64,000 bases of DNA from positions 245-64,244 of the forward strand of contig CAZAZU010000003.1 in NCBI GenBank assembly GCA_964490105.1, given 5' to 3'. Positions 1,794-22,189 of this stretch are shown here, in pieces. Origin of the DNA: an uncultured Gammaproteobacteria bacterium (lineage in GTDB: Bacteria; Patescibacteriota; Microgenomatia; Levybacterales; UBA12049). The notes below the pieces were generated by a model that saw only the letters and a program-made list of their open reading frames with translations, was not told the DNA's origin and did no database searches. How positions within the stretch are numbered: the first letter of the stretch is position 1; each line of letters starts with the position of its first letter. Position numbers and translations under genes: made by a program.

Positions 1794-2363
1794 TTATTCT
1801 AATCCATGGTTTGGTTTCTCAAAACCCAATTCAAGAGGTTTGGCAACGTTCTTTAGGAATTCTTCACGGCTTTGAGGTGAGAAATAGATTATTTTAACAA
1901 TATCCTCATCGTTAAACGATGAAATTCCAACCCCACCGTCGAGAAAAATGTAATATGAGATAACCTCATCGTAAGGATCATACATTTTTAAATCTGGTTC
2001 TCCATACTTTTTTTTATAGTCACTTAATTTCCCTCTGGAAGAATCGAAGACATTTTCAACGGAATACTTAACCTTATCATTTTCAATAGTTATTGAATTT
2101 TTATAATCTTCAGAACGAGTATTGTATAAAAGATTGGTTCTGTTCCCGTCTTCTTCTATCGAAACAGGCTCTCCTTTTAGTTTGACAACGTCTTCTCTTG
2201 AAGCTTCTCCTGGTTTTAGTTTTTCGAAATCGCTAGTTTTACTAAATATATTATTGACAGCGCCGTCTGTAGTAAATATCAAAAAAGAGATTATTATAAA
2301 AATTATAATGAATGTTCCCGCGAGGGTAATTAATAGTTTGTCAGAAATGTTTAACCTGTTCAT
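1794..2363 (-). CDS. Hypothetical membrane-anchored protein with N-terminal TM helix; last gene of the minus-strand T4SS-like block
   Basis: 189-aa ORF. N-terminal hydrophobic helix LLITLAGTFIIIFIIISFLIF. No recognisable domain. Confidence 0.4.
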   Translation of the reverse strand: MNRLNISDKLLITLAGTFIIIFIIISFLIFTTDGAVNNIFSKTSDFEKLKPGEASREDVVKLKGEPVSIEEDGNRTNLLYNTRSEDYKNSITIENDKVKYSVENVFDSSRGKLSDYKKKYGEPDLKMYDPYDEVISYYIFLDGGVGISSFNDEDIVKIIYFSPQSREEFLKNVAKPLELGFEKPNHGLE

Positions 2364-2365
2364 TA

Positions 2366-3184
2366 TTAGTTAAATTCGTATCCTCCGTATACATTATCTT
2401 TTGCCCATTTATAGATTGATGGACATTCATTTTTAAAGTTATTTATATTGGCATATTCTCCGTCTTTTTTATTATACACGTATAATGCCATAGCTTCAGC
2501 GCTCGATTCGCTTACAAGCGAATAGGAAGACAAGCCTCTTCTGTTGTATGTCTTAATAACACCTTCTGAGGCAAAGCAATTAGGGTCTTCTCTCATAAGT
2601 CTTGTTCTTGGAAACTCCTGCTGAAGGAGTCTGTAATGCCTTTGCTTCATTAAATGACCGGTTTCATGAAGATATAGGAATGCATAAGGAGCGAACGTAC
2701 TAGTTGCGATTTTTGAACAATTGCTAAATTTAATAACCTGTGAATCATAAACTCTGCCCGCTGCTCCCAACACGCTGCTGTTGTTATAGCACTCGATGGA
2801 AAACTTATCGCCTGGTTCAAGGAGCTTAAGGAATCTTGAAGACGCTGAAGGTATTCTATATGCTTTATGAATTCCTTGTCTGGCAGCGCAATTTACGTTT
2901 TCGGCGGGAGCATAATTGTCAGGCCATCCGCTTCCTCCCTCTTTTATTATTACGCCAAAATCGTCTCTTAATCTTTGGTCTATGCTTCCGCAGTCGGGGG
3001 CTGGTCCTGTGTCTGGGCCTGGGTTTGGACCAGGGTCGCCCTCGTCGCTTCCCAGCCCTACGATGGTAGTAACAGCATCGATAATAAAGTTTTCCTGAGA
3101 TTGTGCGAGCGCTGATTTAGAAAAACTCAAAAAAGTAATCAGGGCAACAACCAAAAACAAAAAAATTTTTTTCACTCCAAACAT
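2366..3184 (-). CDS. Secreted protein with HExxH motif; putative zinc metallopeptidase
   Basis: Signal peptide MFGVKKIFLFLVVALITFLSFSKSALA. LYLHETGHLMKQRH contains HETGH (zincin-like HExxH). 2-bp gap to the next gene. Confidence 0.35.
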   Translation of the reverse strand: MFGVKKIFLFLVVALITFLSFSKSALAQSQENFIIDAVTTIVGLGSDEGDPGPNPGPDTGPAPDCGSIDQRLRDDFGVIIKEGGSGWPDNYAPAENVNCAARQGIHKAYRIPSASSRFLKLLEPGDKFSIECYNNSSVLGAAGRVYDSQVIKFSNCSKIATSTFAPYAFLYLHETGHLMKQRHYRLLQQEFPRTRLMREDPNCFASEGVIKTYNRRGLSSYSLVSESSAEAMALYVYNKKDGEYANINNFKNECPSIYKWAKDNVYGGYEFN

Positions 3185-3222
3185 ATTTTATGCACTTAAA
3201 AAATAAAAAAGCAAATTAACAT

Positions 3223-5745
3223 TTAATTATTAACTACGCGAGGAATGCATGAATTGTTGCAGGCAGCCGGGGTTTGAATTTTTCGCGCATCTTCTATGTC
3301 TCCACAAAGCTTGCGATTGTTTCTGTATTTTGGATAATAGCAAAAGCAGTATGCCGTTTGCCAGGCCTCGAAATTGTTGCCAAGGCCAGCTTGAACTTTA
3401 TTGTATGAGACTGCGTTTTGAGCTTGTCTTTGCCATGGGACATCTCCCTTTGTATTTTTTTCCTCATTCCATGGCTTGAAAGGATCTACTCGTCCATTTG
3501 TGTAGCTTGAGTCCATTTGAAAATGTCCCCAGGTGTTATTACTTGATCCATATCCATTGGGGCCGTTGCCTACGGATTCGCATTGAGCTATTTTTACGAA
3601 GAAGTCTACTTTTTCCGGATCACTTTCAAAGCGAGACAATACCTGTCGTAGTTTTTCAAGAGAGAAGTTGCATAAGGGATCTCCGAAATTTGCAGCATTC
3701 ACGTTAAATCTTCTTCGGATAGTGCTCATAATACTTGCATAGTTGGCATTCCCGCAGTCGTCTGTTGTTGGCGGGCTATTTGCGCCTTCAAACAGGTCTC
3801 CGCTGTCATCAGGAGTTGAGATTTCCGCAGCGCACCCCTCAATATATATTCGATTAGTGATGGTTACGTCGTCTTCGGGGTTAATAGTTATCTTGAAAGT
3901 AAAGCTCATGGGGGCAAATCCTTTACTTGACGCTAGGTTTTCTGTTAGCTTCCATTTCACGATCGTTTCTGGATCTGAATCAATTCTATAGCTGCCAGTT
4001 GTAAGCTCAGATCCTTCTACGAGGGTTGACTGCGGCGGGATCGCATCTACGAATGTAATGTCCTCAAGATCGCATTTCGCTTCGCGTGAATCATGAATCA
4101 GCCCAATTTGATAGGTAATATTCTCGCCGTTTGATATTTCGCGAGGCCCGACCTTAAAATAAGAAATACCCGCATAAGGACTCTCTACAATAGCCTCCTC
4201 AGGTATAAGAGTATCGTCTCCTGACGGGGCAAAGAATATGGAAAAAATCGTTATAACAAGAAAAATTATTAATGCAATTAGGATTGCAAGCGGTAGGCTA
4301 ACGGCTGAAAGGGAGACGCCAATGCCTGTTAAAATTTTCGCAAGCACTATGGACGCAACACTTATAACTGTTCCTCCGATTCCTAAAATACTACCGGCAA
4401 TTGCGCTAAGCGCTGTGGTAAAAACTCCTCCGATGGCGCTGGCAACAGAGCCGATCAAGGATCTTTTAAACAAATTCAGAAGAAAATTCAGGGGATTAGT
4501 TAAGTTTTTTAATTTTTTACTAGCTAGATTAAGTCTTGAACTTAGTTTTCCAAGTTTCGTTTTTTGAAAACGTTGCCCTATCTTAGAATTGACAGCTCTG
4601 TGTTGTGCACTTGCTATTGCCCTGCTTCTAATTTGTCCCGGGGAGTAGTAGACTAATTTGCTGCGGAGAGTTTTATTGGCCTGGGGGGGCGCTGACTGAC
4701 CCCCTTTTAACGTATTCGGAGTAGTTTTATTTGCAAGAGTGTTTGGGGGTTGTGCGCCCGGTAGGGTATTAGATGGAATAGGAGTCCATGCTGTTGTGTT
4801 GGGCTGTGCTTGCTGCGAGGGGTTTAAGGGCTGGGGAATATTTGCAGTTGGATTTCTCCTAAGCGCTTTTGATAATCTGCTTTGATTTTGAATAGCTGCG
4901 GCTTCATCTCTTTGTCTTCTTCTTTCAATTGCGGCATAAAGCTCTGGGTCATTATATTTTTGCGCCCATTCTCTTGCGAGCTTTGGTGAATGTAGGGCTA
5001 TGTGGTCATGGATTTCTTCATTGGAACGAGAAATTGACATCGCTCGATCCCCGGTTCTTCTAGAAGGGTCTTTTTGATCCCATGCTTTTGTAGCGTTTGC
5101 TACATATTGTTTCCGTATTTGATCGAACTGAGCGTAGTCAAGATTTTTTCCCCTTGCGTCCCATCTGTTGATTGCCTGAGCAAGCTCCATATCGTTCGGG
5201 TTTTTACTTGCCCACTCTCTGGCCTTTTTCTCAAAATATCCCACGAGATAATCGTGTCTTTCGGCTTCCGCACGGTCATATGCCTCCTGCTGAGTGCCCG
5301 CCCTATTTGGATCTTTTTTTCTTTTTGGGTTTTTTTGAAGCTTTTTTTCCTCTTTTTCCCAGCGTTTTGCAAAAATTTCTCCGTATTCATTAGAGTGTTT
5401 CTTGAATTGCTCGTAAGTCATTTCTTTGTCTCGTAAAAGTTTTATTCCTCCAATTGTCAATCCTACCGCACCTAGTCCAGGCAGAGTAGATGATGTTTCT
5501 TTTGATGTGGAGGGTTTTGCTGATTCAATTGATATTTCAGCGCCTAAGGACCTTGCTGTTCCAAGATCTGCCCTCCCCTGCCAAAGCCCTAATGAATTTA
5601 GAAGTCCATTGTTCGTTAAGATTTTTTCGAATTCTGCAAAGTCTTTAGTTGTTAAGATTGCGTTTTGATCAGCAGGGGAGAGGTTTTCGATTTGCTTAGC
5701 AAACCATCTAGCATTCTCTATGATTAATTTTGAATCATCGGCCAT
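3223..5745 (-). CDS. Large membrane protein with C-terminal lysozyme-like (Rpf/transglycosylase-like) domain; candidate T4SS-associated peptidoglycan hydrolase (VirB1 analog)
   Basis: 840 aa. Central Gly/Ala/Ser-rich multi-TM segment (GSVASAIGGVFTTALSAIAGSILGIGG...IFLVITIFSIFF). C-terminal KIAQCESVGNGPNGYGSSNNTWGHFQM resembles the CESGGNW...GYYGGLQFS..TW transglycosylase-like motif. Lies immediately downstream of VirB4. Confidence 0.5.
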   Translation of the reverse strand: MADDSKLIIENARWFAKQIENLSPADQNAILTTKDFAEFEKILTNNGLLNSLGLWQGRADLGTARSLGAEISIESAKPSTSKETSSTLPGLGAVGLTIGGIKLLRDKEMTYEQFKKHSNEYGEIFAKRWEKEEKKLQKNPKRKKDPNRAGTQQEAYDRAEAERHDYLVGYFEKKAREWASKNPNDMELAQAINRWDARGKNLDYAQFDQIRKQYVANATKAWDQKDPSRRTGDRAMSISRSNEEIHDHIALHSPKLAREWAQKYNDPELYAAIERRRQRDEAAAIQNQSRLSKALRRNPTANIPQPLNPSQQAQPNTTAWTPIPSNTLPGAQPPNTLANKTTPNTLKGGQSAPPQANKTLRSKLVYYSPGQIRSRAIASAQHRAVNSKIGQRFQKTKLGKLSSRLNLASKKLKNLTNPLNFLLNLFKRSLIGSVASAIGGVFTTALSAIAGSILGIGGTVISVASIVLAKILTGIGVSLSAVSLPLAILIALIIFLVITIFSIFFAPSGDDTLIPEEAIVESPYAGISYFKVGPREISNGENITYQIGLIHDSREAKCDLEDITFVDAIPPQSTLVEGSELTTGSYRIDSDPETIVKWKLTENLASSKGFAPMSFTFKITINPEDDVTITNRIYIEGCAAEISTPDDSGDLFEGANSPPTTDDCGNANYASIMSTIRRRFNVNAANFGDPLCNFSLEKLRQVLSRFESDPEKVDFFVKIAQCESVGNGPNGYGSSNNTWGHFQMDSSYTNGRVDPFKPWNEEKNTKGDVPWQRQAQNAVSYNKVQAGLGNNFEAWQTAYCFCYYPKYRNNRKLCGDIEDARKIQTPAACNNSCIPRVVNN

Positions 5746-5747
5746 AG

Positions 5748-7724
5748 TTACGTGCTTTTATCAAAATCGGAAAACCCAGGAATAACTTGAGGCTGAGGCG
5801 AAGCTTGAACGCTTGAAATGCCACTATTTGCGCTCGGCTGCTGAATGGGTTGAGCGTTCAATTCTGGACCTGGTAATCCTGACGTGTTTGCAAATGAAGT
5901 ATCGTTCATTATTTTTTCCTGCTGAGCCCTTTTTAGAAGTTCCTCGGGATTTGAGGTTATTAAATTGTGCTCGAAGGGGGCCGAAAGAACCTTCATAGAT
6001 ACATGACTTTGACCTGCGAAAAATAGTCCTTCCCCGACATTTGCCGAAAGAAGAAGCTGTTTTTCTTGCTCTGAAAGATAAAAAATCTCCGATACTAGAT
6101 CAACTTCGGTAGGGCTTTGCTTTAAAAGCATTTGAATGGATGAGTTGGAAAGTATTGCTTTTCCATAGTCAGTAGAAAGAAAATCTTGAACATCTTGCGT
6201 TGCGGTAGTTAATGCTAAGTAGTATTTTCTCGCTCTCTTAGCTACCCCATGGATAAAAGAGGCTGAATCTTGGTATTTCATTAAATACCATGCCTCATCT
6301 AAAACCAATAGACGTTTTTTGAGGTCTTTTCTAACCCTTGTCCAAATAAAATCTAAGATTATATGCATGGCAACAGGGCGTAGTTGATCTTCAAGTCCCT
6401 GAGTGGAAAAAGCTGTAAGAGGATTTTTGATATCGAAATTTGATTGTTGGTTAAAGATTCCCGCCATGCTCCCTTTTATAAATTTTTCCAGCCTTAGAGC
6501 AAGATCCCTTGATACTTGATCTTCATTCCCAATCAAAACCTTATAAAGGTCTTCCATGAGGGGTGGTTCCTTGGTTTGCGTAGTTGGATCTGCGGTGATC
6601 CCCTTTTGCTTATAGGTTTCGACTAGTGCTCTGTCTAATATTGCGTCATATGAAGCGTCAAGGTCTCCCATGACTATCCTAAGAAGCGCATGAAGCGATA
6701 AGATTTTAAGACCCAACTCGTTTTCTCCCTCTTCATATCTTCCTGAAAGATCAAACGGATTAATTTTAACGGGTGAAGCTGGAGTAAACTCTATGTATTC
6801 TCCTCCCATGGTTCTTGTTAGAATTCCATATTCGCCTTCAGGGTCTATTACTATCACTTCGGTTCCAAACATAAACTGCCTCATGACCTCAAGTTTTATT
6901 AAATACGATTTTCCGGATCCTGATTTTCCAAAAACTACTTCGTTTCCGTTCTCAAGAGAATAGCGGTCGAAAATTATAAGCGAGCCGTTAAGTTGATTAA
7001 TTCCATACATTACGCCTTTGTCTTGCGTTAATGTGGCAGAAGTGAAAGGGAAAGTGGACGCAAGGGACGTGGTATCCATATTTCTGGGAAGAAATAATTG
7101 ATCTTCGGCTAAAGGAATTGTAGATTTGAATCCGTCTTCCATTTGAAGCGTGGCTGGTTTTGCTATAACAAGAATAGAGGCGAGTAGAGTCTTAAGTCTT
7201 TTAGATGCCTCATCAAGCTCGTGTTTTTCTTCCGATACTAAGGTGATGTAAAGACTGAATTGAAAGAATCTCTCAATACCTTTCGCTAGCTCTTCCTGTA
7301 CCGCGAGCGCATCTTCAAGAGCTGCTTGTACCTTAGGGTCTAAAACTTTATTGTTTTGCTGTTGCTCCATTAAGGTTGCTTCCATTTCACCAATCTTCCT
7401 TCTCAGGTCATCAAGAGCATCGGGAGATGACGTTGGATAGCAGAACATTGAGATATTTAAGGAATGATCGAAATCAATTAATGGCTCAAGCCAATTTGGA
7501 GAAACAAATCTGGGATATCCTACCACAAAAAAAGTTTTATAGAATTTTTCTCCTACGCGAATATGCCCAAAATCTACCTCAATCGATGCTGGAGCGATTA
7601 TGTCAGTAACAGAATTCATTCCCCTTTCGATTCTGTTTATCCCTGCATTTGCTGGATGAGCCGTTGCCCCAGGGATAGAATGTTGTGGGGATTGAATTGT
7701 TTTATTTTTGTTAAATAATTTCAT
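5748..7724 (-). CDS. virB4: VirB4/TrsE/CagE-family type IV secretion ATPase
   Basis: 658 aa. Walker A GKSGSGKS, DPEGEY motif, Walker B LLVLDEAWYLM, then ...TATQDVQD. Overall VirB4-like architecture. 4-nt overlap with the upstream gene. Confidence 0.85.
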   Translation of the reverse strand: MKLFNKNKTIQSPQHSIPGATAHPANAGINRIERGMNSVTDIIAPASIEVDFGHIRVGEKFYKTFFVVGYPRFVSPNWLEPLIDFDHSLNISMFCYPTSSPDALDDLRRKIGEMEATLMEQQQNNKVLDPKVQAALEDALAVQEELAKGIERFFQFSLYITLVSEEKHELDEASKRLKTLLASILVIAKPATLQMEDGFKSTIPLAEDQLFLPRNMDTTSLASTFPFTSATLTQDKGVMYGINQLNGSLIIFDRYSLENGNEVVFGKSGSGKSYLIKLEVMRQFMFGTEVIVIDPEGEYGILTRTMGGEYIEFTPASPVKINPFDLSGRYEEGENELGLKILSLHALLRIVMGDLDASYDAILDRALVETYKQKGITADPTTQTKEPPLMEDLYKVLIGNEDQVSRDLALRLEKFIKGSMAGIFNQQSNFDIKNPLTAFSTQGLEDQLRPVAMHIILDFIWTRVRKDLKKRLLVLDEAWYLMKYQDSASFIHGVAKRARKYYLALTTATQDVQDFLSTDYGKAILSNSSIQMLLKQSPTEVDLVSEIFYLSEQEKQLLLSANVGEGLFFAGQSHVSMKVLSAPFEHNLITSNPEELLKRAQQEKIMNDTSFANTSGLPGPELNAQPIQQPSANSGISSVQASPQPQVIPGFSDFDKST

Positions 7725-8383
7725 TTTACTAGCCCTGTGTTTGGTTTTGCGCCCTTAACAATGGTGTCGCTAATGCCGTCTGAGATATGGGCACCACTGT
7801 CAGAATTGTAAATTTCATAAAAAAGCCTAATGAGTTCGTTTTTTTCAAGAATTTTTGATTTTACACCTGCTCTCATGAGCTCCTGAATGACAGATTGAGC
7901 TTTTGACATAAGAAGATTTCTAGCGTCAATGATTACCGCTTGTTTATTTTTAGCGTTTGAGACGCCACTGACTCCTTTTTCGAGAAAGGAAAATGAAATA
8001 GCAATATAGAATTTTTTATCAAGCACAGACTTATCGCGAACGAGTTGCGAGACAAAATCCTTATACATATTTATTTGAGCTGCAAGATTTGGATTAAGAG
8101 CTTTTTGAGCCTGCTGTTCCAGGAGCGTTACATATGAGCTTATGTCTAATTTTCTGCTTAAAATAACAATCTGAATCGGAAAAGAAAGGGAGTTTAGAAG
8201 GGAGGCATATGAAAGAATTTTTGCCTGCTGTTCTTCGTTTGATTGTAAAGCAAAATTTGTAGCTACGATCTCCATAATCAGGCAGGCATTCCCTCCAGAA
8301 AGAATAACCATATTTTCAACAATGTCTTCGATTTCTATAAATTTTTGCGTTGTTGCAGTTATTTTCTGAGCAGAGTTTTTCAT
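7721..8383 (-). CDS. Hypothetical protein inside the T4SS-like operon
   Basis: 220 aa with no TM segment. ATGA overlap with virB4 suggests translational coupling. Confidence 0.4.
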   Translation of the reverse strand: MKNSAQKITATTQKFIEIEDIVENMVILSGGNACLIMEIVATNFALQSNEEQQAKILSYASLLNSLSFPIQIVILSRKLDISSYVTLLEQQAQKALNPNLAAQINMYKDFVSQLVRDKSVLDKKFYIAISFSFLEKGVSGVSNAKNKQAVIIDARNLLMSKAQSVIQELMRAGVKSKILEKNELIRLFYEIYNSDSGAHISDGISDTIVKGAKPNTGLVK

Positions 8384-9663: not shown

Positions 9664-9789
9664 ACAAAATAACTACTAGTATCTAGTACCTATTTACTAG
9701 CTAATAGAATATAACGTGAAAAAAAGGGATTCAAGGCGATCGAAATAGATCAGTTTTAGAGAAAAATGAAGCTAATTGTGAAAACCTCT

Positions 9790-10197
9790 TTAAGGAGTAA
9801 AGCAGGATCCTGATCTGCACTGTTGGATGTCTGGGCGCGGACAATCAAAGCGATCCGTACAAGGGACACATTGGGAAAACCCAAACCGGGTTATGCAGGC
9901 CTCTCTTACTCCGGTAGCCTTTGCAATAACAGGTAAGATTATAAAAGACAAAAGAATCAAAACAAAACCAAGCACAGCGAACGTGAGAGTTTTCCTCGCT
10001 CCTTCTGCTTGCTTAGGATCTCCACCAGAGGTTACAAACTTAAATCCACTAATAATAATAAAGATAATAGCTACGAGCCCTGATAAAACCAATAACCAGA
10101 AAATAACATTTCCGACTATGACCGGGAAACAGTTGACCGTAGCGACTTGATCGCCTCCTCCTACTAAACAACCGCTATCTTTTAATGCTTGCCACAT
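9790..10197 (-). CDS. VirB2/TrbC-like two-TM pilin-like protein, paralog 1, with Cys-rich C-terminal tail
   Basis: 135 aa. Hydrophobic hairpin around the conserved TSGGDPKQAEGARKTLTFAVLGFVLILLSFI motif. C-terminal 8-Cys tail. Confidence 0.55.
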   Translation of the reverse strand: MWQALKDSGCLVGGGDQVATVNCFPVIVGNVIFWLLVLSGLVAIIFIIISGFKFVTSGGDPKQAEGARKTLTFAVLGFVLILLSFIILPVIAKATGVREACITRFGFSQCVPCTDRFDCPRPDIQQCRSGSCFTP

Positions 10198-10242
10198 AGA
10201 GTTAGCGTAACAAAGAGAGATTTAAAAAACAAGGGGAATAGA

Positions 10243-10668
10243 TTAGTCAACCAAGTTAGGGATAATGATGTTTCCTCCGGTTAGTGATCCGGCATCAAAT
10301 AGCTGTAATACGAAGTTGATGATAAAGTAGGAGACGAAAACAAGCACTAAGCCTACAAGTGCAGCTACGATCGTTCCTCTTGCAGCCTCTACTTTGCCTT
10401 TATCCCCACCAGACATAATCCATTTGATTCCTCCGTAGACTAGAAATCCGATAGCTAATATAACAGCTACTATGAATAGGATTGTTATTATATTTGAAAT
10501 CATTGGACCTACTCCATCAGCCCCAAGCGAACATAAAGCTCCAAATCTGAGTCCTCCGCCTGGATTGTCAGCGCATGGATCAATCGGACCAAAATCCTGA
10601 GCAAATGCAATTGGGGTAAGACTTAAATAAGTTGCTGTAGAAAATATTAGAGCAGATAACTTTTTCAT
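10243..10668 (-). CDS. VirB2/TrbC-like pilin-like protein, paralog 2
   Basis: Signal peptide MKKLSALIFSTATYLSLTPIAFA if the ATG at 10666-10668 is used; the ORF track's 10707 start is TTG. Hairpin with MSGGDKGKVEAARGTIVAALVGLVLVFVSYF motif. Confidence 0.55.
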   Translation of the reverse strand: MKKLSALIFSTATYLSLTPIAFAQDFGPIDPCADNPGGGLRFGALCSLGADGVGPMISNIITILFIVAVILAIGFLVYGGIKWIMSGGDKGKVEAARGTIVAALVGLVLVFVSYFIINFVLQLFDAGSLTGGNIIIPNLVD

Positions 10669-10722
10669 TAGTAATATGATCGTATGAGGTTTTGAATTGT
10701 TTGTCAAGAGGTAAATTCGAGG

Positions 10723-11178
10723 CTAAAATGCACATCCCGGTCTAGATGGATTACATTGACACCTGTATCTTCCGGTATCCGCATCTCTTCTGCATAAGGG
10801 TCTGTCTGGATTTGGACAAGTTCCAAATGTGTCACCTCCGCATCTTGAGGTGCTAGCGGGTAGATCTAAAACCTTTACTTGGAAAAGAGCAGAAACGGTG
10901 CTAATTATCATAAAAGATGCGAAACCAACTATAAGACCGATTATTGCATAGATTATTTTTTTTCTTGCCGCCTCAACTTTGTTTTTGTCTCCTTGTGATG
11001 TTATATAGGAAATACCTCCCCAAATTAGAAAAAAAAGCGCAGTCAGCGTGAGGAGTATGAACAACACTGTCATTCCGTTTGAGATAAGACTAAGAAGGGT
11101 TTCGTCTCCTCCTGATGGCATTCCCATAATAGGGTCAATTCTTTTTCCGCCAGGTAGCGCTAATGCAATTTTTTCCAT
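10723..11178 (-). CDS. VirB2/TrbC-like pilin-like protein, paralog 3, with Cys-rich C-terminal tail
   Basis: Hairpin with TSQGDKNKVEAARKKIIYAIIGLIVGFASFMI. C-terminal Cys-rich CGGDTFGTCPNPDRPLCRRDADTGRYRCQCNPSRPGCAF. The track's N-terminal 11 aa (MIFWDYLDLDN) is read-through into the 349-bp repeat, so the start was trimmed to the ATG at 11176-11178. Confidence 0.55.
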   Translation of the reverse strand: MEKIALALPGGKRIDPIMGMPSGGDETLLSLISNGMTVLFILLTLTALFFLIWGGISYITSQGDKNKVEAARKKIIYAIIGLIVGFASFMIISTVSALFQVKVLDLPASTSRCGGDTFGTCPNPDRPLCRRDADTGRYRCQCNPSRPGCAF

Positions 11179-11179
11179 A

Positions 11180-11528
11180 TTATCTAAATCCAGGTAGTCC
11201 CAGAATATCACGGGTTATTAATTCAAGTAAAGCTAAGGAGAATATTATGAACAGAAGTCCAACTATCGCTGCGGTTAGTTGATCTCTGGCATTCTTAACT
11301 TTCTCAGGATCTCCCTGGGAAGTCATCAGCTTATATCCTGCAATAATTATGATTATTATTACTATTCCTCCGGAAATGCTTAAAACAAACCCAAGCATCC
11401 ATCTGGTAAATCCAGCTGAATCTGTTCTCACAAATCCGATTGCTGTTTTAATCTTTGTACACCCCTTAGCATCTGTATATGATGATCCATTCTTAGCACA
11501 AGGAAGGGAGAGAGGGTCATTTTGTTGA
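11180..11528. repeat. 349-bp direct repeat, copy A (3' end of pilin paralog 4 plus the junction)
   Basis: Appears identical, on reading, to 12141-12489. Encodes the shared C-terminal pilin module. Confidence 0.85.
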
Positions 11529-12097
11529 AGAGTCGTATCGCTTTCATAATCAGTATGAAAGCCTGGGACATCTCCCTCAGCAAAAGGCCTACAGAGGGGT
11601 GTTTTTGAGTCAGAGTAAGCCTTAGAGGTCATTTGATAAAACTTGCCATCTGCTGGATCCTTAAATACGCAGTAATTCATACTACATAGATTGCCTAGGC
11701 CTTTTCTGCACTGGTCATTGCTCGTGGTGCATGTGTCGCTAGCGTTTAGTTCACAGCGGTCTGTTTCGTCTGGAACATCTCTCACCTCACATCCTCTATA
11801 TGCATTTGCGCTACATATTTGATCATCTGGGCATGGTGAGGGAGGGTTTGGGTTAGGCGCTCGTTGTTCGCTTGAGCATTCGAAAGCCGTTTGGCTTGGA
11901 TTGCAAACCACATCGTCATTAACATATACACATTTCCAAACTCCGGCATCGTTATAAGGGTGTGCAGTTTTTCCGCTTACTCGAGGGCATGTAAAGCAAT
12001 CGCTGCCATTGCCTCGAGCGGCAAATGATGGATTTGATCCAAGTGCAAAAAGTAGGAAAAAAAATATAGGGACGAGAATTGTTAATATTTTTCTCAC
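11180..12097 (-). CDS. Secreted Cys-rich ectodomain fused to a C-terminal VirB2-like pilin module, paralog 4
   Basis: GTG start in frame at 12095-12097 gives signal peptide VRKILTILVPIFFFLLFALGSNPSFAA. About 20 Cys in the ectodomain. The C-terminal 116 aa are identical to paralog 5 (YKLMTSQGDPEKVKNARDQLTAAIVGLLFIIFSLALLELI). Confidence 0.55.
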   Translation of the reverse strand: MRKILTILVPIFFFLLFALGSNPSFAARGNGSDCFTCPRVSGKTAHPYNDAGVWKCVYVNDDVVCNPSQTAFECSSEQRAPNPNPPSPCPDDQICSANAYRGCEVRDVPDETDRCELNASDTCTTSNDQCRKGLGNLCSMNYCVFKDPADGKFYQMTSKAYSDSKTPLCRPFAEGDVPGFHTDYESDTTLQQNDPLSLPCAKNGSSYTDAKGCTKIKTAIGFVRTDSAGFTRWMLGFVLSISGGIVIIIIIIAGYKLMTSQGDPEKVKNARDQLTAAIVGLLFIIFSLALLELITRDILGLPGFR

Positions 12098-12140
12098 AAC
12101 TTTATCGTAGGTAAAACTTAGAGGAATTGCAAGAAAGGGG

Positions 12141-12489
12141 TTATCTAAATCCAGGTAGTCCCAGAATATCACGGGTTATTAATTCAAGTAAAGCTAAGGA
12201 GAATATTATGAACAGAAGTCCAACTATCGCTGCGGTTAGTTGATCTCTGGCATTCTTAACTTTCTCAGGATCTCCCTGGGAAGTCATCAGCTTATATCCT
12301 GCAATAATTATGATTATTATTACTATTCCTCCGGAAATGCTTAAAACAAACCCAAGCATCCATCTGGTAAATCCAGCTGAATCTGTTCTCACAAATCCGA
12401 TTGCTGTTTTAATCTTTGTACACCCCTTAGCATCTGTATATGATGATCCATTCTTAGCACAAGGAAGGGAGAGAGGGTCATTTTGTTGA
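12141..12489. repeat. 349-bp direct repeat, copy B (3' end of pilin paralog 5 plus the junction)
   Basis: Appears identical to 11180-11528. The copies are 961 bp apart. Confidence 0.85.
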
Positions 12490-13535: not shown

Positions 13536-13571
13536 AACTTTATCGTAGAAGAATAAAATTCGATTTGCAAA

Positions 13572-14879
13572 TTAGGAAGAGAATTTAAAGCCTCGGCCTT
13601 TTATTGTTTGGATGTGCGTAGGAGAGTTAGGGTTTTCCTCGATTTTTTTTCTTACCCTAAAAATTAGCTGATCTAAGGCTTGCTCAGTTACTCCTGCGGT
13701 CGAAGCTTGATCTCCCCATACGCTACTGATTATCTCGTCTCTCTCTAAGATTTTTTCAGGGTTTAAGGCTAAGAATTTAAGCAACTTAAACTCTGAGGAT
13801 GTTAATCCTTCAGATAGGATGAGATTGCCTTTTATTATTTCATTTGTTGACTCATCATAGATAATCTCATTTTTGGCGTTTTTAAGTTCATTTTTTGCAA
13901 ATTCTTCTAAAAGGGGAACAGCAAATTTATTATTTTTGACTAAGTCTATTGCCACTAGATGGCTTGATTCGGTAGCGTCTTCCTTAGCAATTAGATTTTG
14001 CTCAAACGGGGTAAGGGATTTCCAGATTTCTGTTAAAACTGCCTTAACTCGCGTATTTGATAAAAGAAATTCTTTAATGTTCTTTTTAACCCCTTCATTG
14101 ATGCACGCTTCAGTACTTACAAGCCATAGTTTTCCCAAACCGCCGGTAACTTTAATAATTTCATCAAGAGTAGGTTGATTAATAGTTTTGTCTGTAGATT
14201 TTTTAATATAGCTTAACCTAAAGTTTCTAATTTTCTCATCTCCTAGCGAGAGATAGACTAAATTCCCTACTAAAAATTCATAAAAAGTTGATAAAACGTC
14301 ATGCCCTATTGTTTCCTCAAGCGGGCGATTAAGGGGAAAAACACAAGAAAATCTGTATTTTGCTCTGTCTCTTAATACTTTTAAGTTTTCAAAAAATACA
14401 GGCTCAACTACGCCCACATATTCTTCAAATTTGTCAAAAAGAAGAACTATGGTTAATTCCTTATGTAAGCATAAATAGTCAATTGTTTTTTTAAATCCTT
14501 GAAAAATTACTAACTCATCGCCTGATTTTAAACTCTCATCTAAGATTGCTTTGGTAAACTTATATTCTTCGTTCAGTTTTCTCTCCTGTAGGGAATCTAC
14601 GAGCTCTAAAAACATGTATTTAGTAGAATCAGACAGCGGTCTTTTTTTAATCTCAGAAAAATTTAGCATTACGAAATGGAACCATTTTTGATTTTCTCCC
14701 AGATGAAGATGACGCGCCTTTGTGTTATATGCAAGAATTCGAAGCACGTTACTTCTCCCAACACCGGGAAGTGAAATAACTTGTGCTGAATTACCACTTT
14801 TAATATAGGAAATTATTTTTCCTATTTCTTCTTTTCTGGAATCCGGCGGGTAAAGTGATTCAAAGTGCGTAGGTTCCAT
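13572..14879 (-). CDS. Putative transcriptional regulator: N-terminal ATPase-like domain plus C-terminal OmpR/PhoB-type winged helix
   Basis: C-terminus LSEGLTSSEFKLLKFLALNPEKILERDEIISSVWGD...TEQALDQLIFRVRKKIEENPNSPTHIQTIKGRGFKF matches the Trans_reg_C pattern. N-terminus has a degenerate P-loop-like LPGVGRSNVLR. First gene of the minus-strand block. Confidence 0.55.
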   Translation of the reverse strand: MEPTHFESLYPPDSRKEEIGKIISYIKSGNSAQVISLPGVGRSNVLRILAYNTKARHLHLGENQKWFHFVMLNFSEIKKRPLSDSTKYMFLELVDSLQERKLNEEYKFTKAILDESLKSGDELVIFQGFKKTIDYLCLHKELTIVLLFDKFEEYVGVVEPVFFENLKVLRDRAKYRFSCVFPLNRPLEETIGHDVLSTFYEFLVGNLVYLSLGDEKIRNFRLSYIKKSTDKTINQPTLDEIIKVTGGLGKLWLVSTEACINEGVKKNIKEFLLSNTRVKAVLTEIWKSLTPFEQNLIAKEDATESSHLVAIDLVKNNKFAVPLLEEFAKNELKNAKNEIIYDESTNEIIKGNLILSEGLTSSEFKLLKFLALNPEKILERDEIISSVWGDQASTAGVTEQALDQLIFRVRKKIEENPNSPTHIQTIKGRGFKFSS

Positions 14880-14950
14880 AGCTTTGGTTATTTAATTGTA
14901 AGTGTTTTATAAGGTTTTTATCAAGCTCGTAGGAGTGGTTTGACTTAAAC

Positions 14951-17900
14951 TTGCTCCATATGACACAGGAAATTCTTACAGGATCCATTCAACAGATTCA
15001 GGGTAAGCAAATTGAATTGACAGTAAGAAGCATAAATCCTACACTGAATAGAGGGGGAGAAATCTTTATGTCAGACGCTGGAATTAATACTGAAGCACCA
15101 CAAGCCGTAAGACCTGTCGCAACAAGCGGGGAATTACCTGCTCTTCCGAGAGCGGGGGGGATGTCTCTTGAAGGATTGACTCCGGCTCAACAAATTGATG
15201 CCAAAAGAACTATAAAGCTTATTGAGGATCTAGGTTTTAAGCCAAAAGAAGTGACTTCTAAAGGTAGAACTGAGCAGACGGCTCAGTCAGTTGTTGAAAA
15301 TGCAGGCTTAGATAGTCAGGATCCAGTAGTTTTAAAAAGATCTCGCGATTTAGCAAATAAAGAAGATTTAACAGCAGAGGAGACTGCAGAACTACTTCAA
15401 GCAAATTCTGGGAGAATTTCAAAAGCAGAAGAGTTACTTAAGGAATCATTAGGCAGAGAATTAACTGATGCTGAGAAAAAAGCAATCTTAAGAGCTCATT
15501 TTGTGGGATTTGGTGAAAAAGGAAAAGATGAAAAAAGAGACTCTGGTGTATTTAATGTAAGCCAGGAGCAGTTAGCGGAAAAAGCAAGAATTCTTAAGGA
15601 TGCAGGTTTTGATAAAGAACAAAGACGAGAAATCATAGAATCAGGTCTTGCTGCAGGTGCTCCTCCAGCTCCAGCTAATCCCATGGATGCAAGAAATCAG
15701 GCAATTGCCGATCTGGCTAATCTAAATCTTACGTTAAAGCTTGCTGATATTAGAGACAAAATATTGGCCTTACATGCAGAAGCACAAGCGGGCAATCAAG
15801 GAGCTGGTCTAGTGCCAAATCCTGATGGAATATCTTCTGAGACATTTGATGCTATCTATAAAGGATTTTTTGAAAGAGTAAAAAATGTCTTGAACATGCC
15901 AAATCCCCCCGTTGAGGTTTTAGCACTTGAGCAGCAACTCAAGCAAATAAAAGATCTAGATGACAGAACTCACGAGCAACGAGGACCGCAAGAGAATTTT
16001 ATAAATGAATACGACTTTCTAGTAAAACAGCTTGTAGATGTTGGGCCAAATAATCCTCAGAGGCAGCAGTTTGAGCAAATGCTCGTAGATAGGGTTGTGG
16101 CATTTACCGCTTCTGGGGTTAATCCTTCAAATGACAATATTTACGATATGACTTTAAAGAGAATTATTCAAACAGATGTTTTAGTGTCGAATCCTGTACT
16201 ACAAGAGCAGGTGAGATCGGCGCTAGATAGATTGGTGGTTAGAATTGTAGGATTACCACTACAATCTGATACGGGAGATTTTGACATCGGATTTTATGGA
16301 GGAATTAATTTTGCCTCTATAAAAAATCTTTTACTCTCTATGTCTCAGGACCCATCATACTTTGAAACTAGAGAGATACGCAGGTTATATAGCCAAATGA
16401 ATCTAACAACAAGAGATGCGTATGTACAGTTTAGAGATACAAGAAGAGACCAGAATCTTAATGTGGGATCAAAATTTGAAGCAATGAGAATAGTCCATGA
16501 GTTAAATAAAATGATTGTTCAAAATCAGCTTGATGCTGCTAACCAGGCAGCGCCTCAATTAGGGCCTGAGTATGTTCAGGCATTGTCTAAGTCAAAAGGA
16601 GTTGCATCTGTATTCAGGATTATGGAGTCTGGAATTCTGGATCTTATGGCTAGAGATGGATATATGGCCAAAGGCAGATATGATGCATTAATGGGTAAAG
16701 CACAAAGTCAGGAAACTGGAAGATTTGATAACTCAGGAAATGCATCTATTGTTAAGCAGATTAGAAAAATGCAAGAGCAGCTGGGATCATTGCCGCAAGG
16801 TGCTCAAGCAGGATTAACTCAAGACATGAAGCAATTACTCCAGATGGAAGATTGGGAAGTAGACCTAGCATTTAATTTGGGAAGAAATCTTTATAACATT
16901 TTACATAGATCTGCTGAGCTATCTTCATGGGGAAGATTGCCAAAAGGACTTAAGGCATTTACAAATTCCGTATTTGGAGGATTTAGAAATATTTATAACC
17001 CTGGACTCCATGTTCTAGAAAGATTTAAGCCAGGCGCAGGCAGAGGAGGATATAGATTATTTGAAATGTTTATGGATGCAATGCAAAGACGAAGAAAAAC
17101 TATGGAAGGTTACGGAGACATGAATTTGGAGCAGGTTAGGGGCGACCTTATTAAATTCTTTGAGCTTCCTTCTATCGCTGGCCAAAGAGGATTTATTTCT
17201 TCATGGAAAGCAAATGAGGGAACCCTAACAATGGTGGAAACTAATTTTACCCCACAGGGTATTTTCGGTCAATTCGATATACATTCCCAAATGCACCTAG
17301 AGGAAGATGGATCAAAAATTTTTGATAGAGCTACAGGGATTGTGCCGGGTAGAGGCATTGGTCATTTCCTGGATACAGATGCGTTAACTTTCATTAATAG
17401 CGCAGGGGAGCAGTTTGAATGGGGTAAGCTATCAGATGGGCAGAAAGCTGATTATTTCAGATCTTTATTTTTTGAACCCGGAACGGGAGGCCACGGACAT
17501 GACCCAGTGTTAAGACGGGATATAAATATTGGATTAGGGGTAATTTATAAAACCGCGCTGGGGCCAGCGGGGGGGCATCATGGGCATGAAAGTCATCACC
17601 TCAATGAAGTTAAAGAACAAATAAGGAGATTGATATGGGAGCGCGCTGCTGAAGAAAATCCACTTGCAGTTTTGCCTTATCTACATAAGCTTAAATTTAG
17701 CGCCGATCATGCGCCTGTTACTGTAGGGCAGGGGCCTCAGGCAAGAACAGAGGTTGTGGCAGGAAAAACCTTACTTGCTGATGTGTATCAAGCACCAGTA
17801 ATGAGCGATTCCAAAGTAAAATTCATGCTGCTAAATGAGTGGAGAATGTCAAAGATTAAGGAAGGGAATCTCAACTACACTTTAGTTGATGCTATAAATG

Positions 17901-18727
17901 AGATTGATGCATCAATGGGAGTACAGAGAGATCCTATTACGCACGCTATAACCAATCAAGTCGCCGTTATGGGGCTTAGTCTCACTCAAGAAGAATATGA
18001 ATTATACGATAGGATTGTTGAGAGCGCAAAATTAGCATCTAGAGATATGGCAAATGTAAGGTATGGCTTTGTGGCATTTGCGAATGATCTTCCTTTTGAA
18101 AAAGAGAACTTTGATGTTTTGGGAAATAACGCATATCAAAGGCACTTCGGAGATGTGGTTCAGATAAATAGCTCAACACAAGCTATGATAGACGCATTTG
18201 ACAATCTTGGTACAGTAAAAGATTTTCATGGAGTGGTCGAGGTTGTGGGTAAATTTGAAAAAGGAATTACTGCAGTTCATGGGGATGCTGCAGCCAAAGA
18301 TAAAGCAGCTCCTTTAGTAGAGGCTATTACAAGATTTTTTAGAAGAGGTGAGAATGCAGGTGGAGAAAAATTCGTTGAAGAGGATAAAAAAGGCCCAATG
18401 GCTAAAATGAAAAGATATTTTAGGCAATGGGACGAGGTGCATTCAGTCTTGCAACAGTTTCATAAAGCAAACTCTATCGCTCAGCAGGAATATAATGTTG
18501 AAGCATTGGCATTAGATAGGCATCAGATTTACTTACTTCAGGAGGAGTTGATGGCAAGTGGATTTATGGGGCATGATCAGGAAGAGGAGTTTAGGAAAAA
18601 CTTTGGAGGGTTCTTGGGTTTTATAACAAGAATGATGCTTGAAGGATTCTTAAGGACTGGAAAATTATCTACGATAATAACAGCGAGAGGTTTGTTGGGG
18701 AGTTCATTTAAAGGTGCAATTGAATAA
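14951..18727 (+). CDS. Large soluble hypothetical protein (1258 aa), divergent from the regulator. The real start may be the internal Met at about 15069
   Basis: Long uninterrupted ORF with no TM segment. Helical, charged N-terminal third. His-rich motifs GGHGHDPV and GGHHGHESHH near 17490-17600. Confidence 0.5.
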   Translation: MLHMTQEILTGSIQQIQGKQIELTVRSINPTLNRGGEIFMSDAGINTEAPQAVRPVATSGELPALPRAGGMSLEGLTPAQQIDAKRTIKLIEDLGFKPKEVTSKGRTEQTAQSVVENAGLDSQDPVVLKRSRDLANKEDLTAEETAELLQANSGRISKAEELLKESLGRELTDAEKKAILRAHFVGFGEKGKDEKRDSGVFNVSQEQLAEKARILKDAGFDKEQRREIIESGLAAGAPPAPANPMDARNQAIADLANLNLTLKLADIRDKILALHAEAQAGNQGAGLVPNPDGISSETFDAIYKGFFERVKNVLNMPNPPVEVLALEQQLKQIKDLDDRTHEQRGPQENFINEYDFLVKQLVDVGPNNPQRQQFEQMLVDRVVAFTASGVNPSNDNIYDMTLKRIIQTDVLVSNPVLQEQVRSALDRLVVRIVGLPLQSDTGDFDIGFYGGINFASIKNLLLSMSQDPSYFETREIRRLYSQMNLTTRDAYVQFRDTRRDQNLNVGSKFEAMRIVHELNKMIVQNQLDAANQAAPQLGPEYVQALSKSKGVASVFRIMESGILDLMARDGYMAKGRYDALMGKAQSQETGRFDNSGNASIVKQIRKMQEQLGSLPQGAQAGLTQDMKQLLQMEDWEVDLAFNLGRNLYNILHRSAELSSWGRLPKGLKAFTNSVFGGFRNIYNPGLHVLERFKPGAGRGGYRLFEMFMDAMQRRRKTMEGYGDMNLEQVRGDLIKFFELPSIAGQRGFISSWKANEGTLTMVETNFTPQGIFGQFDIHSQMHLEEDGSKIFDRATGIVPGRGIGHFLDTDALTFINSAGEQFEWGKLSDGQKADYFRSLFFEPGTGGHGHDPVLRRDINIGLGVIYKTALGPAGGHHGHESHHLNEVKEQIRRLIWERAAEENPLAVLPYLHKLKFSADHAPVTVGQGPQARTEVVAGKTLLADVYQAPVMSDSKVKFMLLNEWRMSKIKEGNLNYTLVDAINEIDASMGVQRDPITHAITNQVAVMGLSLTQEEYELYDRIVESAKLASRDMANVRYGFVAFANDLPFEKENFDVLGNNAYQRHFGDVVQINSSTQAMIDAFDNLGTVKDFHGVVEVVGKFEKGITAVHGDAAAKDKAAPLVEAITRFFRRGENAGGEKFVEEDKKGPMAKMKRYFRQWDEVHSVLQQFHKANSIAQQEYNVEALALDRHQIYLLQEELMASGFMGHDQEEEFRKNFGGFLGFITRMMLEGFLRTGKLSTIITARGLLGSSFKGAIE

Positions 18728-18749
18728 AAGCTATTGAAAGTTAAGTATG

Positions 18750-20351
18750 CTATCCTCCAAGAAGTTGACTGATGATTCTTCCTCGCTGTCTGTGTTTTGC
18801 ATCTAAGCTCATTGGGTCATGTTGAATAGCAGCGGCACCTTTAAGTCCTCCTCTAATTGCGCCACCAGCAGCTGCGGTAGGCTGGAAAACAGGGCCGTAA
18901 TTAACATTTGGAGCTTTAATAGCGCCTCTAGTAATTTGAAGTACGTGAGGTGTCATAAATAAGAATCCTAAAGCTATCACACCAGCAAATATTTGGCTGG
19001 AGTCCCCGGTTCCTCCACCTACAAGGGGCGGGATAAATAAGGTTCCAGTCTCGATTGTGTTTTGTGGATCTGATGCAATATCGCTGAATACTTTTCCTAA
19101 GATAAACATAGACATAGCAGTAGGGAATACGGCCAGATTAGCAAGCATATCCTTAAACCAGGGGCTTACGCCAGTGGAAGAGCCTGGGAACAGGCCAATT
19201 AAGATCCAGAACGGTGCAAAAACGATATCTAATAAGATGTTTATGTACGCAGTTATTAATATAATCCATAGGCGAATTGCAGTATAAATTAAAGCCAAAA
19301 ATATAATTAAAGCTGAGGCTAAGCCCACTATTAAGCCTACTACTGCAGTAAATAGATTACCTACAAAATCAAAAAGACCAGGTTCAAAATTTACGCTCCC
19401 GCGTCCGCTAGGAGATCCATTTAGAGCGTTCATAACTAAATTTCTCATTGTGTCAGATCCCTGAAGTGCTAATTCAGGAAATCCTCCCCCAAATCCCGCT
19501 CCTAAGTCATCGCTTGGGTCACCTGGCCAAAGTCTGTTAATTGCATCAAATGGGGTAGGGGATGTAGTTATTTGTCCTAAGTTGCCGATCTCATGTCCCG
19601 GAATGTTGGCTAGTACACCGCCAACTAGATATAAGGCTACGTACATAACATCTATCAGAAGTCCTGCTATTGCAAAAGAAAAAGTGACCAGTATTATTCC
19701 CGTAATAATTCTAGGAATCTGGTTTTCTATGGTCATTACTGTGCGGGGGTCAATATGAACACGGAACATGATAGCTAGACCAATTAATACAAAAATAATA
19801 ACGAAGAGTAAGTAGGCTATATTTCTCATAGCCACCCAGATCTCTAGAAGCGGTCTAATTCCGCAAAACCCTACTCCCTGTACTGCTCCGGCACACTCTC
19901 CTGCCCGCGGTTCTTGAGCGTATGTGTTTTTGGCTATACCGAAATTGCCGGCTAGGTAATTAATGTATTGACCTGAGCTTGTAGGAGGTGTAAATGTGGC
20001 GGCAATCAGTGTGCCCATTACGCCTAATGCCCCTCCGCCATTTTCTACGAAACCTATCCTCCCTGTTACAGGATCAACTCCTAAGCATCTATGATCTTGT
20101 CTAATTGGATCAAAACCGCCAAGCTGACAAACAGTTGCAGCCATAAGTTCAATTACTGTGCTTTGTACGTATGTGCGCTGGTCCTTTGGTACATCAGAAT
20201 TGAGGCCGGTGGTATTCTTTTCTGTTTTTATAATATCGCTATTTTTTACCTCCGTAGTTATAGATGCTTGCGCAAAAGAATTTTTAGTAAAAAGAAAGAA
20301 AAGTGAGCCTAAAAAGACAAATAAAATTAATACTCGGGCAGAGAGCTTCAT
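18750..20351 (-). CDS. Polytopic membrane protein; candidate VirB6/TrbL-like T4SS channel component
   Basis: Signal peptide, then at least six hydrophobic helices across 533 aa with a periplasmic loop after the signal. Lies near the VirB4 cluster. Assignment rests on topology alone. Confidence 0.4.
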   Translation of the reverse strand: MKLSARVLILFVFLGSLFFLFTKNSFAQASITTEVKNSDIIKTEKNTTGLNSDVPKDQRTYVQSTVIELMAATVCQLGGFDPIRQDHRCLGVDPVTGRIGFVENGGGALGVMGTLIAATFTPPTSSGQYINYLAGNFGIAKNTYAQEPRAGECAGAVQGVGFCGIRPLLEIWVAMRNIAYLLFVIIFVLIGLAIMFRVHIDPRTVMTIENQIPRIITGIILVTFSFAIAGLLIDVMYVALYLVGGVLANIPGHEIGNLGQITTSPTPFDAINRLWPGDPSDDLGAGFGGGFPELALQGSDTMRNLVMNALNGSPSGRGSVNFEPGLFDFVGNLFTAVVGLIVGLASALIIFLALIYTAIRLWIILITAYINILLDIVFAPFWILIGLFPGSSTGVSPWFKDMLANLAVFPTAMSMFILGKVFSDIASDPQNTIETGTLFIPPLVGGGTGDSSQIFAGVIALGFLFMTPHVLQITRGAIKAPNVNYGPVFQPTAAAGGAIRGGLKGAAAIQHDPMSLDAKHRQRGRIISQLLGG

Positions 20352-20401
20352 TAATTTAAGTTTGATCCATTTTCAAAAATATGTCAAGTTAAATTGAAGT
20401 G

Positions 20402-20488: not shown

Positions 20489-20534
20489 GTGGTGAGTATT
20501 TTATCAGTTTTATTAGCTTGAGCCAAGGGAATAT

Positions 20535-22082: not shown

Positions 22083-22189
22083 TTTTACTGAACTTTGAAG
22101 TCCAGTATGAAAACTTAAAAATCTAAAAATGAGTTTATACTGAATGAAGCCGAACTACTTGATATTAACTTTACAGAAAATTTATAGAT

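Follow-up and report, generated by a model that had tools for sequence, protein, structure and literature searches.

The kind of type IV secretion system (T4SS) considered here is already known from work published in 2023-2025, including its proximity to dnaA, its pilin arrays, its TrsD protein and its lack of a relaxase. In Southlakia epibionticum, the genes SEML1_0006-0019 are essential for epibiotic growth, the pilin series among them, and form a cluster resembling Gram-positive conjugative T4SSs with no recognisable relaxase or coupling protein (Wang et al. 2023, PMC10633639). A survey of 3,035 genomes placed VirB4 as a Patescibacteria clade nested in MPF_FATA, accompanied by TrsD, PrgI/VirB3 and arrays of PF18895 pilins (2-11 genes, especially in Microgenomatia and Saccharimonadia), with relaxases nearly absent, type IV coupling proteins (T4CPs) encoded elsewhere and the cluster lying by dnaA/dnaN in Microgenomatia and Paceibacteria (Quinonero-Coronel et al. 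2025, PMC12102498); a 2025 review restates this description (PMC12857230). Here, we analyze a block of genes at positions 1794-20351 of a 64-kb stretch of contig CAZAZU010000003.1 (hereafter, the window). It is very probably the chromosomal Patescibacteria-clade T4SS of the ultra-small genome of a Ca. Levybacteria (Microgenomatia) bacterium, derived from monoderm MPF_FATA conjugation machinery, devoid of a relaxase and working by the mechanism proposed below.

The block shares with these described systems the MPF_FATA VirB4, TrsD, PrgI/VirB3 and VirB6, genes for a lysozyme and a peptidase located downstream of virB4, a divergent PF18895 pilin array, the lack of a relaxase and of an outer-membrane core, a distantly encoded T4CP homologue and adjacency to dnaA/dnaN. 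In the Microgenomatia of the survey VirB6 is scarce and VirB3 mostly unlinked to virB4, whereas here both are present and syntenic. Further differences are a hydrolase domain that belongs to no Pfam family, and two pilins of 300-460 aa with an identical hairpin, where proteins of the same array share no more than 54% identity in the survey. An earlier note on this DNA had read the block as a chromosomal T4SS of Gram-positive type, without relaxase or outer-membrane core, by the origin of a reduced genome, and this core reading survived all tests. The component set that it called non-canonical is so relative to Gram-negative VirB systems, but is the standard set of the Patescibacteria clade (PMC12102498, PMC10633639, PMC12857230).

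Gene order and inheritance

Open reading frames (ORFs) of at least 110-120 aa were scanned across the window, save a few overlapping longer ORFs, and all those listed in the earlier note were found in place. Directly after dnaN, which ends at 1790, the block opens with twelve close-packed minus-strand genes (1794-14879; intergenic distances of -4 to 126 nt), followed by the gene for a 1255-aa protein on the plus strand and a VirB6-like gene on the minus strand, at whose 20351 end lies a tRNA-Ser gene (Table 1). Between dnaA and dnaN, four DnaA-box-like 9-mers, one of them perfect, cluster at 535-603; this spacer is the probable oriC, in keeping with the position next to the origin that had been claimed for the block. 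The G+C content of the window is ~39%, and beyond the block it carries housekeeping genes (penicillin-binding proteins, PGK, RNR, a Mur ligase, TGT, FtsH and others). A promoter and terminator scan returned sites no more commonly than in shuffled sequence and was not used.

Relatives were collected with VirB4 as query against a set holding a single genome for each GTDB species, and all proteins of the window were then compared with the resulting loci by tblastn. The 26 related loci all come from Patescibacteria metagenome-assembled genomes, with VirB4 identities of 45-92% (~91% for the closest). Those with a name belong to Ca. Levybacteria, Woykebacteria, Shapirobacteria, Doudnabacteria or the 'Patescibacteria group'; several are labelled 'Gammaproteobacteria', yet their gene content is patescibacterial. 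The same order runs through the 26 loci: regulator, pilins, PrgI, TrsD-like protein, VirB4, hydrolase (then peptidase and 189-aa protein, where present), and finally dnaN and dnaA, oriented convergently to these genes. In 20 loci dnaN is no more than 10 kb away from the block, and five of the other six are cut short on the dnaN side. Judged by its neighborhood, the block is inherited vertically as part of the chromosome and is no mobile element, because both the gene order and the dnaN/dnaA adjacency are conserved among relatives.

The window also encodes a VirD4-like coupling-protein homologue, which the earlier note had missed. This 786-aa protein matches PF10412 (TrwB_AAD_bind, 2.8e-9), PF12696 (1e-5), NF045973 (CD1115 family, 1.9e-12), and TrwB and DotL (1e-4), and has a ~340-aa insert between its N-terminal transmembrane (TM) segment and the P-loop. 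Two ORFs without assignment (463 and 122 aa) precede its gene, and a tRNA-Ile(UAU) and a tyrosine recombinase follow it (to 52167); the region at 48819-52167 may represent a module of its own or what is left of an element. Together, these genes at 48.8-52.2 kb lend something to the view that the block is a functional or recently decayed integrative and conjugative element (ICE), which would transfer DNA by means of a relaxase that has escaped recognition and of the VirD4-like protein encoded 41 kb away. The conjugation family (CD1110) of its VirB4, a gene order collinear with pSK41 and the tRNA-Ser gene adjoining the VirB6-like gene point the same way. We nevertheless regard an ICE as very improbable: no integrase lies within or beside the block, its GC is uniform with the flanks, and its dnaN-adjacent position is kept across Levy-, Woyke- and Shapirobacteria, unlike that of mobile elements. 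Relaxase, VirB9, VirB10 and VirB11 families gave no Pfam or NCBIfam match in the scanned ORFs of the 64 kb, in agreement with the absences reported earlier (VirB7 has no usable profile), and 3,035 Patescibacteria genomes yielded just 109 relaxases (PMC12102498).

Table 1. Coordinates of the features discussed, in window positions except for the hairpin modules of related loci (handles beginning with L)
Feature	Coordinates	Strand	Evidence or remark
dnaA (left-truncated)	2-514		frame open, cut by window edge
dnaA-dnaN intergenic region, probable oriC	515..674 (160 bp)		four DnaA-box-like 9-mers
dnaN	675-1790
189-aa membrane-anchored protein, last gene of block	1794..2363	-	N-terminal TM anchor, ~150-aa outside domain
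Secreted HExxH protein, 272 aa (predicted)	2366..3184	-	HExxH alignment
VirB1 analogue, 840 aa (predicted)	3223..5745	-	C-terminal lysozyme-fold model
VirB4 ATPase, 658 aa	5748..7724	-	Pfam, NCBIfam and PDB profile matches
TrsD/TraD-like protein, 220 aa	7721..8383	-	NCBIfam tiling, hhalign to pSK41 TrsD
PrgI/VirB3-family protein, 426 aa	8383..9663	-	PF12666 1.9e-10, 41.6 bits vs cut-off 27
Small VirB2-like pilin, 135 aa, Cys-rich C-terminal tail	9790..10197	-	PF18895 3.3e-8; NF045849 8.2e-8
Small VirB2-like pilin, 154 aa	10243..10707	-	PF18895 5.7e-9
Small VirB2-like pilin, Cys-rich C-terminal tail	10723..11211	-	PF18895 2e-9
Large pilin	11180..12172	-	PF18895 6.4e-8; TrbC 0.004
Large pilin, 464 aa	12141..13535	-	PF18895 5e-8; NF045849 1.8e-9
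349-bp perfect direct repeat, copy A	11180..11528	.	stop codon and last 115 codons of large pilin
349-bp perfect direct repeat, copy B	12141..12489	.	100% identical to copy A
Regulator, 435 aa, first gene of block	13572..14879	-	PF00486 6.6e-20
1255-aa soluble protein	14960..18727	+	between regulator and VirB6-like gene
VirB6-like polytopic membrane protein, 533 aa (model-based)	18750..20351	-	fold searches and family search
VirD4-like coupling-protein homologue, 786 aa	48819..51179	+	41 kb from virB4
Paralogous hairpin modules, L002	5245-5599/6211-6565		within-genome identity 96%
Paralogous hairpin modules, L024	5119-5456/6154-6491		within-genome identity 99-100%
Paralogous hairpin modules, L014	1832-2134/3351-3653		within-genome identity 90-98.7%
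Paralogous hairpin modules, L011	6216-6458/6794-7036		within-genome identity 95.9%
Paralogous hairpin modules, L008	5542-5853/6301-6612		within-genome identity 87%

Motor, membrane parts and predicted wall enzymes

VirB4, which had been called firm on sequence motifs, also passes profile searches. It matches the Pfam families TraG P-loop (3.4e-28) and AAA_10 (4e-11), NCBIfam conju_CD1110 (NF045971, VirB4-like conjugal transfer ATPase, CD1110 family; 2.7e-116, 389.7 bits vs cut-off 325) and, in the PDB, Thermoanaerobacter VirB4 (4AG5, 2.2e-47) and R388 TrwK (1.6e-6), and its Walker A (GKSGSGKS, residue 266) and Walker B (LLVLDE, residue 472) motifs are both intact. The best plasmid-borne relatives are from Actinomycetota (36%) and Bacillota (~25%), while a Gram-negative TraC match is partial only. 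The profile match begins at position 178, the first ~180 residues of a full-length VirB4 being absent. By sequence comparison, the 220-aa protein encoded immediately upstream, whose last 4 nt are shared with the start of virB4, is TrsD-like, a detached VirB4 N-domain, because three lines of comparison coincide: the Mycoplasma VirB4 profile NF045975 (VirB4_plasma) is tiled by the two proteins (220-aa protein over 97-278, 5.3e-11; VirB4 over 292-893), a 19-sequence profile of the 220-aa protein aligns with pSK41 TrsD by hhalign (prob 92%, E 6e-7, 173 columns), and in one relative (L015; DATFUR010000012.1, 1659-3977) the TrsD-like protein and VirB4 are joined in frame in one ORF of 772 aa, which either arose by natural re-fusion or preserves the ancestral state before the split. 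NF041427 also matches the 220-aa protein over its full length, at 13.1 bits and hence under the cut-off of 200. The earlier proposal that this protein is a VirB8/PrgL candidate is ruled out by the tiling, the TrsD match and the fusion.

Among plasmids, the closest VirB4 in the collection searched is that of Streptomyces sp. BHT-5-2 p1 (L028, 2177441-2197204; 36% identity, E 1e-103). Its cluster, actinobacterial and unannotated, holds an N-terminally short VirB4, a VirD4-like ATPase and an NlpC/P60 hydrolase, and may be the nearest non-patescibacterial relative of the window system.

The protein in the VirB3 position belongs to the PrgI family and has two adjacent TM segments (~28-75), as described earlier, followed by a ~330-aa tail composed of a Q/P-rich low-complexity linker, a coiled coil and a CarboxypepD_reg-like beta-sandwich (PF13620 1.6e-7). 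The tail had been taken for extracytoplasmic; it is probably cytoplasmic instead, because both termini of VirB3 proteins are cytoplasmic (PMC12857230) and the charge distribution agrees. The 533-aa protein has a signal peptide, an N-terminal outside domain and a polytopic membrane region. A fold search with its model (predicted local distance difference test, pLDDT, 70) gave TrwI/VirB6 as the best structural match, and PF04610 is passed by one of 40 members of its family (P0102; 32 bits vs 25.9), in the homologous TM region. The modelled fold and topology agree with the VirB6-like role suggested earlier. The 189-aa gene occupies the place of PrgL/TrsH (VirB8-like) in Gram-positive systems and lies beside the 272-aa gene in five loci; its product has no Pfam or NCBIfam match (weak BamE, 0.032), and hhalign against pSK41 TrsH was not significant.

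The 840-aa protein combines a ~430-aa N-terminal region, probably cytoplasmic, with a TM block (431-511), a beta-sandwich region and a C-terminal domain (~631-840) whose model (pLDDT 89) has a lysozyme/lytic-transglycosylase fold. With a conserved CES...GxFQM motif and a nearly invariant Glu723, it is predicted to be a VirB1-like peptidoglycan hydrolase with a conserved catalytic Glu; the transglycosylase-like domain of the earlier note is borne out by the model and not by a sequence family. An 11-sequence profile of the domain found C-type lysozyme at E 0.02. Its C-terminal fragment retrieved no homologue from an index of 5.8e9 proteins, and an exhaustive HMMER library search retrieved 292 relatives of the domain, some fused to Peptidase_M15_4. 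The neighboring 272-aa protein is a predicted secreted zinc metallopeptidase, with an invariant HExxH (H173, E174, H177), a downstream E226 and a signal-peptide-like hydrophobic segment at residues 1-28; it matched neither Pfam nor, in a profile search, the PDB. The gene content between virB4 and dnaN differs among relatives (L012 4480-5880, L013, L015), some of which have the HExxH protein alone and no lysozyme-fold protein; the L012 version of the HExxH protein is larger, at 466 aa, and carries an additional domain and a TM segment of its own.

The first gene of the block encodes a regulator, conserved upstream of the pilins in eight loci. The earlier label 'ATPase-wHTH regulator' holds for the C-terminal winged helix-turn-helix (wHTH) of OmpR/PhoB type, to which the PDB profile matches are confined (residues 333-434). 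The N-terminal 340 aa have no family match (Pfam at E<=1; PDB profile search) and contain a P-loop-like PGVGRS and an LLFDK; the ATPase part of the label is unproven because the Walker-A-like motif carries an invariant Arg for Lys.

Taken as a whole, the arrangement bears out the Gram-positive-type gene order proposed earlier, being collinear with pSK41/pGO1 (and pIP501): CagC-family TraB, TraC (a 2-TM VirB3-like protein), TrsD, VirB4, the TraF membrane protein and the TraG hydrolase, with VirB6/TrbL and VirD4-like genes further away. Unlike those plasmid-borne systems, the window system is chromosomal and vertically conserved; it has no relaxase match, no recognised oriT, no topoisomerase or ssb genes and no recognised TrsH/VirB8-like protein, its hydrolase has a lysozyme fold only and no CHAP domain, and five pilins stand where pSK41 has one small TraB. 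With pCF10 Prg/Pcf it shares a PrgI-family VirB3 (PF12666), a VirB6-type polytopic protein and a VirB4 followed by a multidomain hydrolase with an intracellular N-domain and TM segment (PrgK-like, PMC12857230); pCF10, however, has no pilin, and has the PrgB adhesin, the VirB8-like proteins PrgL and PrgD and a relaxosome, and its PrgI is 117 aa, whereas the window VirB3 bears a 330-aa C-terminal extension. Mycoplasma ICEs share the Mbov_0395 pilin-like family (window pilins match at 1.8e-9 and 8.2e-8) and the Mbov_0397 VirB4 profile tiled by VirB4 and the TrsD-like protein, both with scores below the NCBIfam cut-offs, but differ in being mobile, with a DDE transposase and an unsplit VirB4. Gram-negative VirB/D4 systems (R388 Trw, Agrobacterium VirB) have VirB2-, VirB3-, VirB4- and VirB6-like parts in common with the window, in which VirB5, VirB7, VirB9, VirB10 and VirB11 were not recognised and whose cell has a monoderm envelope.

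Pilins and fast-diverging proteins

Five consecutive genes (9790-13535) encode the VirB2-like hairpin proteins recognised in the earlier note, and all five score above the PF18895 (T4SS_pilin) gathering threshold (33.0-37.8 bits vs 26.6). The third small pilin likely starts at ATG 11178, giving 151 aa, the length of its L002 orthologue, and the first large pilin likely starts near 12097, giving ~305 aa. In each large pilin, a signal peptide and a Cys-rich ectodomain precede the C-terminal VirB2-like hairpin; the ectodomains (16 Cys in the shorter protein, 30 Cys in the longer) are unrelated, and the hairpins are identical. An hhalign comparison of the hairpin profile with pSK41 TraB was not significant. 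VirB2-like hairpins may nonetheless not be foreign to MPF_FATA, on the grounds of the Mbov_0395 family matches and the annotation of pSK41 TraB as CagC family.

The identity of the two hairpins takes the form of a 349-bp perfect direct repeat with sharp edges. An assembly artefact is ruled out, since the repeat-to-unique junctions are unique sequence and paralogue homogenisation recurs in five independent assemblies. Hairpin modules are 54-86% identical between genomes and closer within them (Table 1), while the Cys-rich ectodomains at the N-terminus are either unrelated or reshuffled from strain to strain; the pattern indicates that the pilin array undergoes concerted evolution or exchanges cassettes.

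Divergence is uneven across the block. Between the window and L002, VirB4 (91%), the VirB6-like protein (87%), the regulator and the small pilins all fall within 87-94% identity, while the 840-aa hydrolase (47%) and the 1255-aa protein (45%) are far less alike, and the ectodomains of the large pilins likewise change much more rapidly than VirB4. Such divergence fits host-interaction factors. The 1255-aa protein has no TM segment, no Cys and no domain match, and is lineage-specific, with only 14 homologues among 5.8e9 proteins; it is a candidate substrate, effector or accessory factor.

One could suppose that the pilins are the whole purpose, the VirB4 machine building a VirB2-type pilus for host attachment with no substrate moved. 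Five pilins, two of them with large variable Cys-rich ectodomains, and the lack of a coupling protein inside the cluster would suit such an adhesion organelle. However, the cluster retains a VirB6 channel protein and a wall hydrolase, and Patescibacteria are already equipped for attachment with type IV pili and adhesins (PMC10633639, PMC12857230); adhesion is, moreover, compatible with transport. We therefore consider adhesion alone improbable. A bolder and still doubtful proposal treats the array as a modular host-recognition system, with the large pilins as adhesin-pilin fusions, the ectodomains as exchangeable cassettes, the hairpin as a gene-converted module and the 1255-aa protein as effector. 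If it were true, recombination within the constant hairpin module would exchange ectodomains among strains and determine the epibiont's host range, and the 1255-aa protein would be translocated.

Function, setting and significance

R388 and Gram-positive systems (PMC12857230) provide the analogies from which the steps of the proposed mechanism are drawn. A VirB4 hexamer would be docked to the VirB6 channel in a single membrane by VirB3 and the TrsD-like domain, and the hydrolase and peptidase would breach the peptidoglycan locally. VirB4 would pull pilins from the membrane and polymerise a pilus or short conduit toward the host, on which the two large pilins would display their Cys-rich ectodomains as host-binding modules. 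The apparatus would thereby serve contact-dependent exchange of macromolecules with the host cell rather than conjugation. Our preferred version is export of proteins or effectors, with the 1255-aa protein as candidate substrate; as an alternative, we rank import of host nucleic acids next.

As an import device like H. pylori ComB or archaeal Ced, the system would feed host DNA, RNA or nucleotides to a bacterium unable to make them. Such import has been proposed in the literature (PMC11665869), and a 2026 preprint reports that a cultivated relative feeds on host RNA and has T4SS-pilus-like tubes (10.64898/2026.06.21.733656). The reduced genome of Patescibacteria type, the weak similarity of VirB4 to CedB (6.4e-13) and the ComFC-like and VirD4-like genes in the window are in line with it. 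ComB and Ced share with the window system a T4SS ancestry, the lack of a relaxase and a VirB4-family motor, but ComB retains VirB7-10, of which VirB7 (without a usable profile), VirB9 and VirB10 were not found here, and Ced uses CedA and type IV pili; homology to the window beyond the ATPase was not found. In S. epibionticum, moreover, competence is ComEC-dependent and dispensable whereas the T4SS is essential, and the T4CP is non-essential (PMC10633639, PMC12102498, PMC12857230). No computation here bears on transport direction. On balance import strikes us as possible though rather unlikely. Of the functions entertained in the earlier note, DNA uptake and host attachment have already been voiced in the literature (PMC11665869), and conjugation is unlikely.

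Several observations weigh against the reading of the block as a complete exchange apparatus. We infer pilus formation, transport direction and substrate, the system being known here from its genes alone, and a VirD4-like T4CP in the genome leaves DNA transport possible. The VirB6-like assignment depends on fold searches at pLDDT 70 and on one Pfam-passing family member: the 533-aa protein itself matches nothing in Pfam, including PF04610, and hhalign of its family with pSK41 TraL was not significant. A VirB8-like protein was not recognised by Pfam or NCBIfam profiles. For the hydrolase, curated SLT, Rpf and lysozyme families gave no Pfam or NCBIfam match in the 840-aa protein or 46 relatives, and the lysozyme assignment rests on the fold search because a deeper 23-sequence profile of the domain found no match in the PDB.

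The wider setting is that of a reduced genome of Patescibacteria type, as the symbiont-like description given earlier implied. Almost every gene at 1794-38782 lies on the minus strand, head-on to replication if this starts at ~600; orientation turns to plus at 38.9 kb, and GC skew is strongly positive only beyond 40 kb. An origin at the 38.8-kb strand switch was considered and is unlikely, the skew over 1-40 kb being about zero, not negative, and the DnaA boxes clustering near dnaA. Five tRNA-Ser genes fall within 5 kb (20401-25154; anticodons UGA, GGA, CGA, ACU, GCU), the unusual tRNA-Ser(ACU) directly beside tRNA-Ser(GCU). A tmRNA at 27348-27737 (-), detected by Rfam (83.8 bits) and absent from the ARAGORN output, lies beside smpB and overlaps the start of a 332-aa MPAB_Lcp_cat ORF call. 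The ComFC reported earlier corresponds to a ComFC-like ORF at 25743-26453 (+), 5 kb past the cluster, with a double zinc ribbon and a phosphoribosyltransferase domain; it is the sole competence gene in the window.

Few machines have been shown to be indispensable for epibiotic life in the Patescibacteria, a very large and mostly uncultured lineage, and their T4SS is one of them. The locus described here is no new kind of system, but a clean and complete Microgenomatia example whose core parts can be named. It adds a large, unannotated protein family that is VirB6-like by predicted fold in Microgenomatia, and a lysozyme-fold hydrolase domain absent from Pfam. As experimental handles, it offers two ectodomain pilins with a homogenised hairpin, a hypervariable hydrolase and a lineage-specific 1255-aa protein, and its main residual value lies in the pilin-module observation and the candidate substrate.

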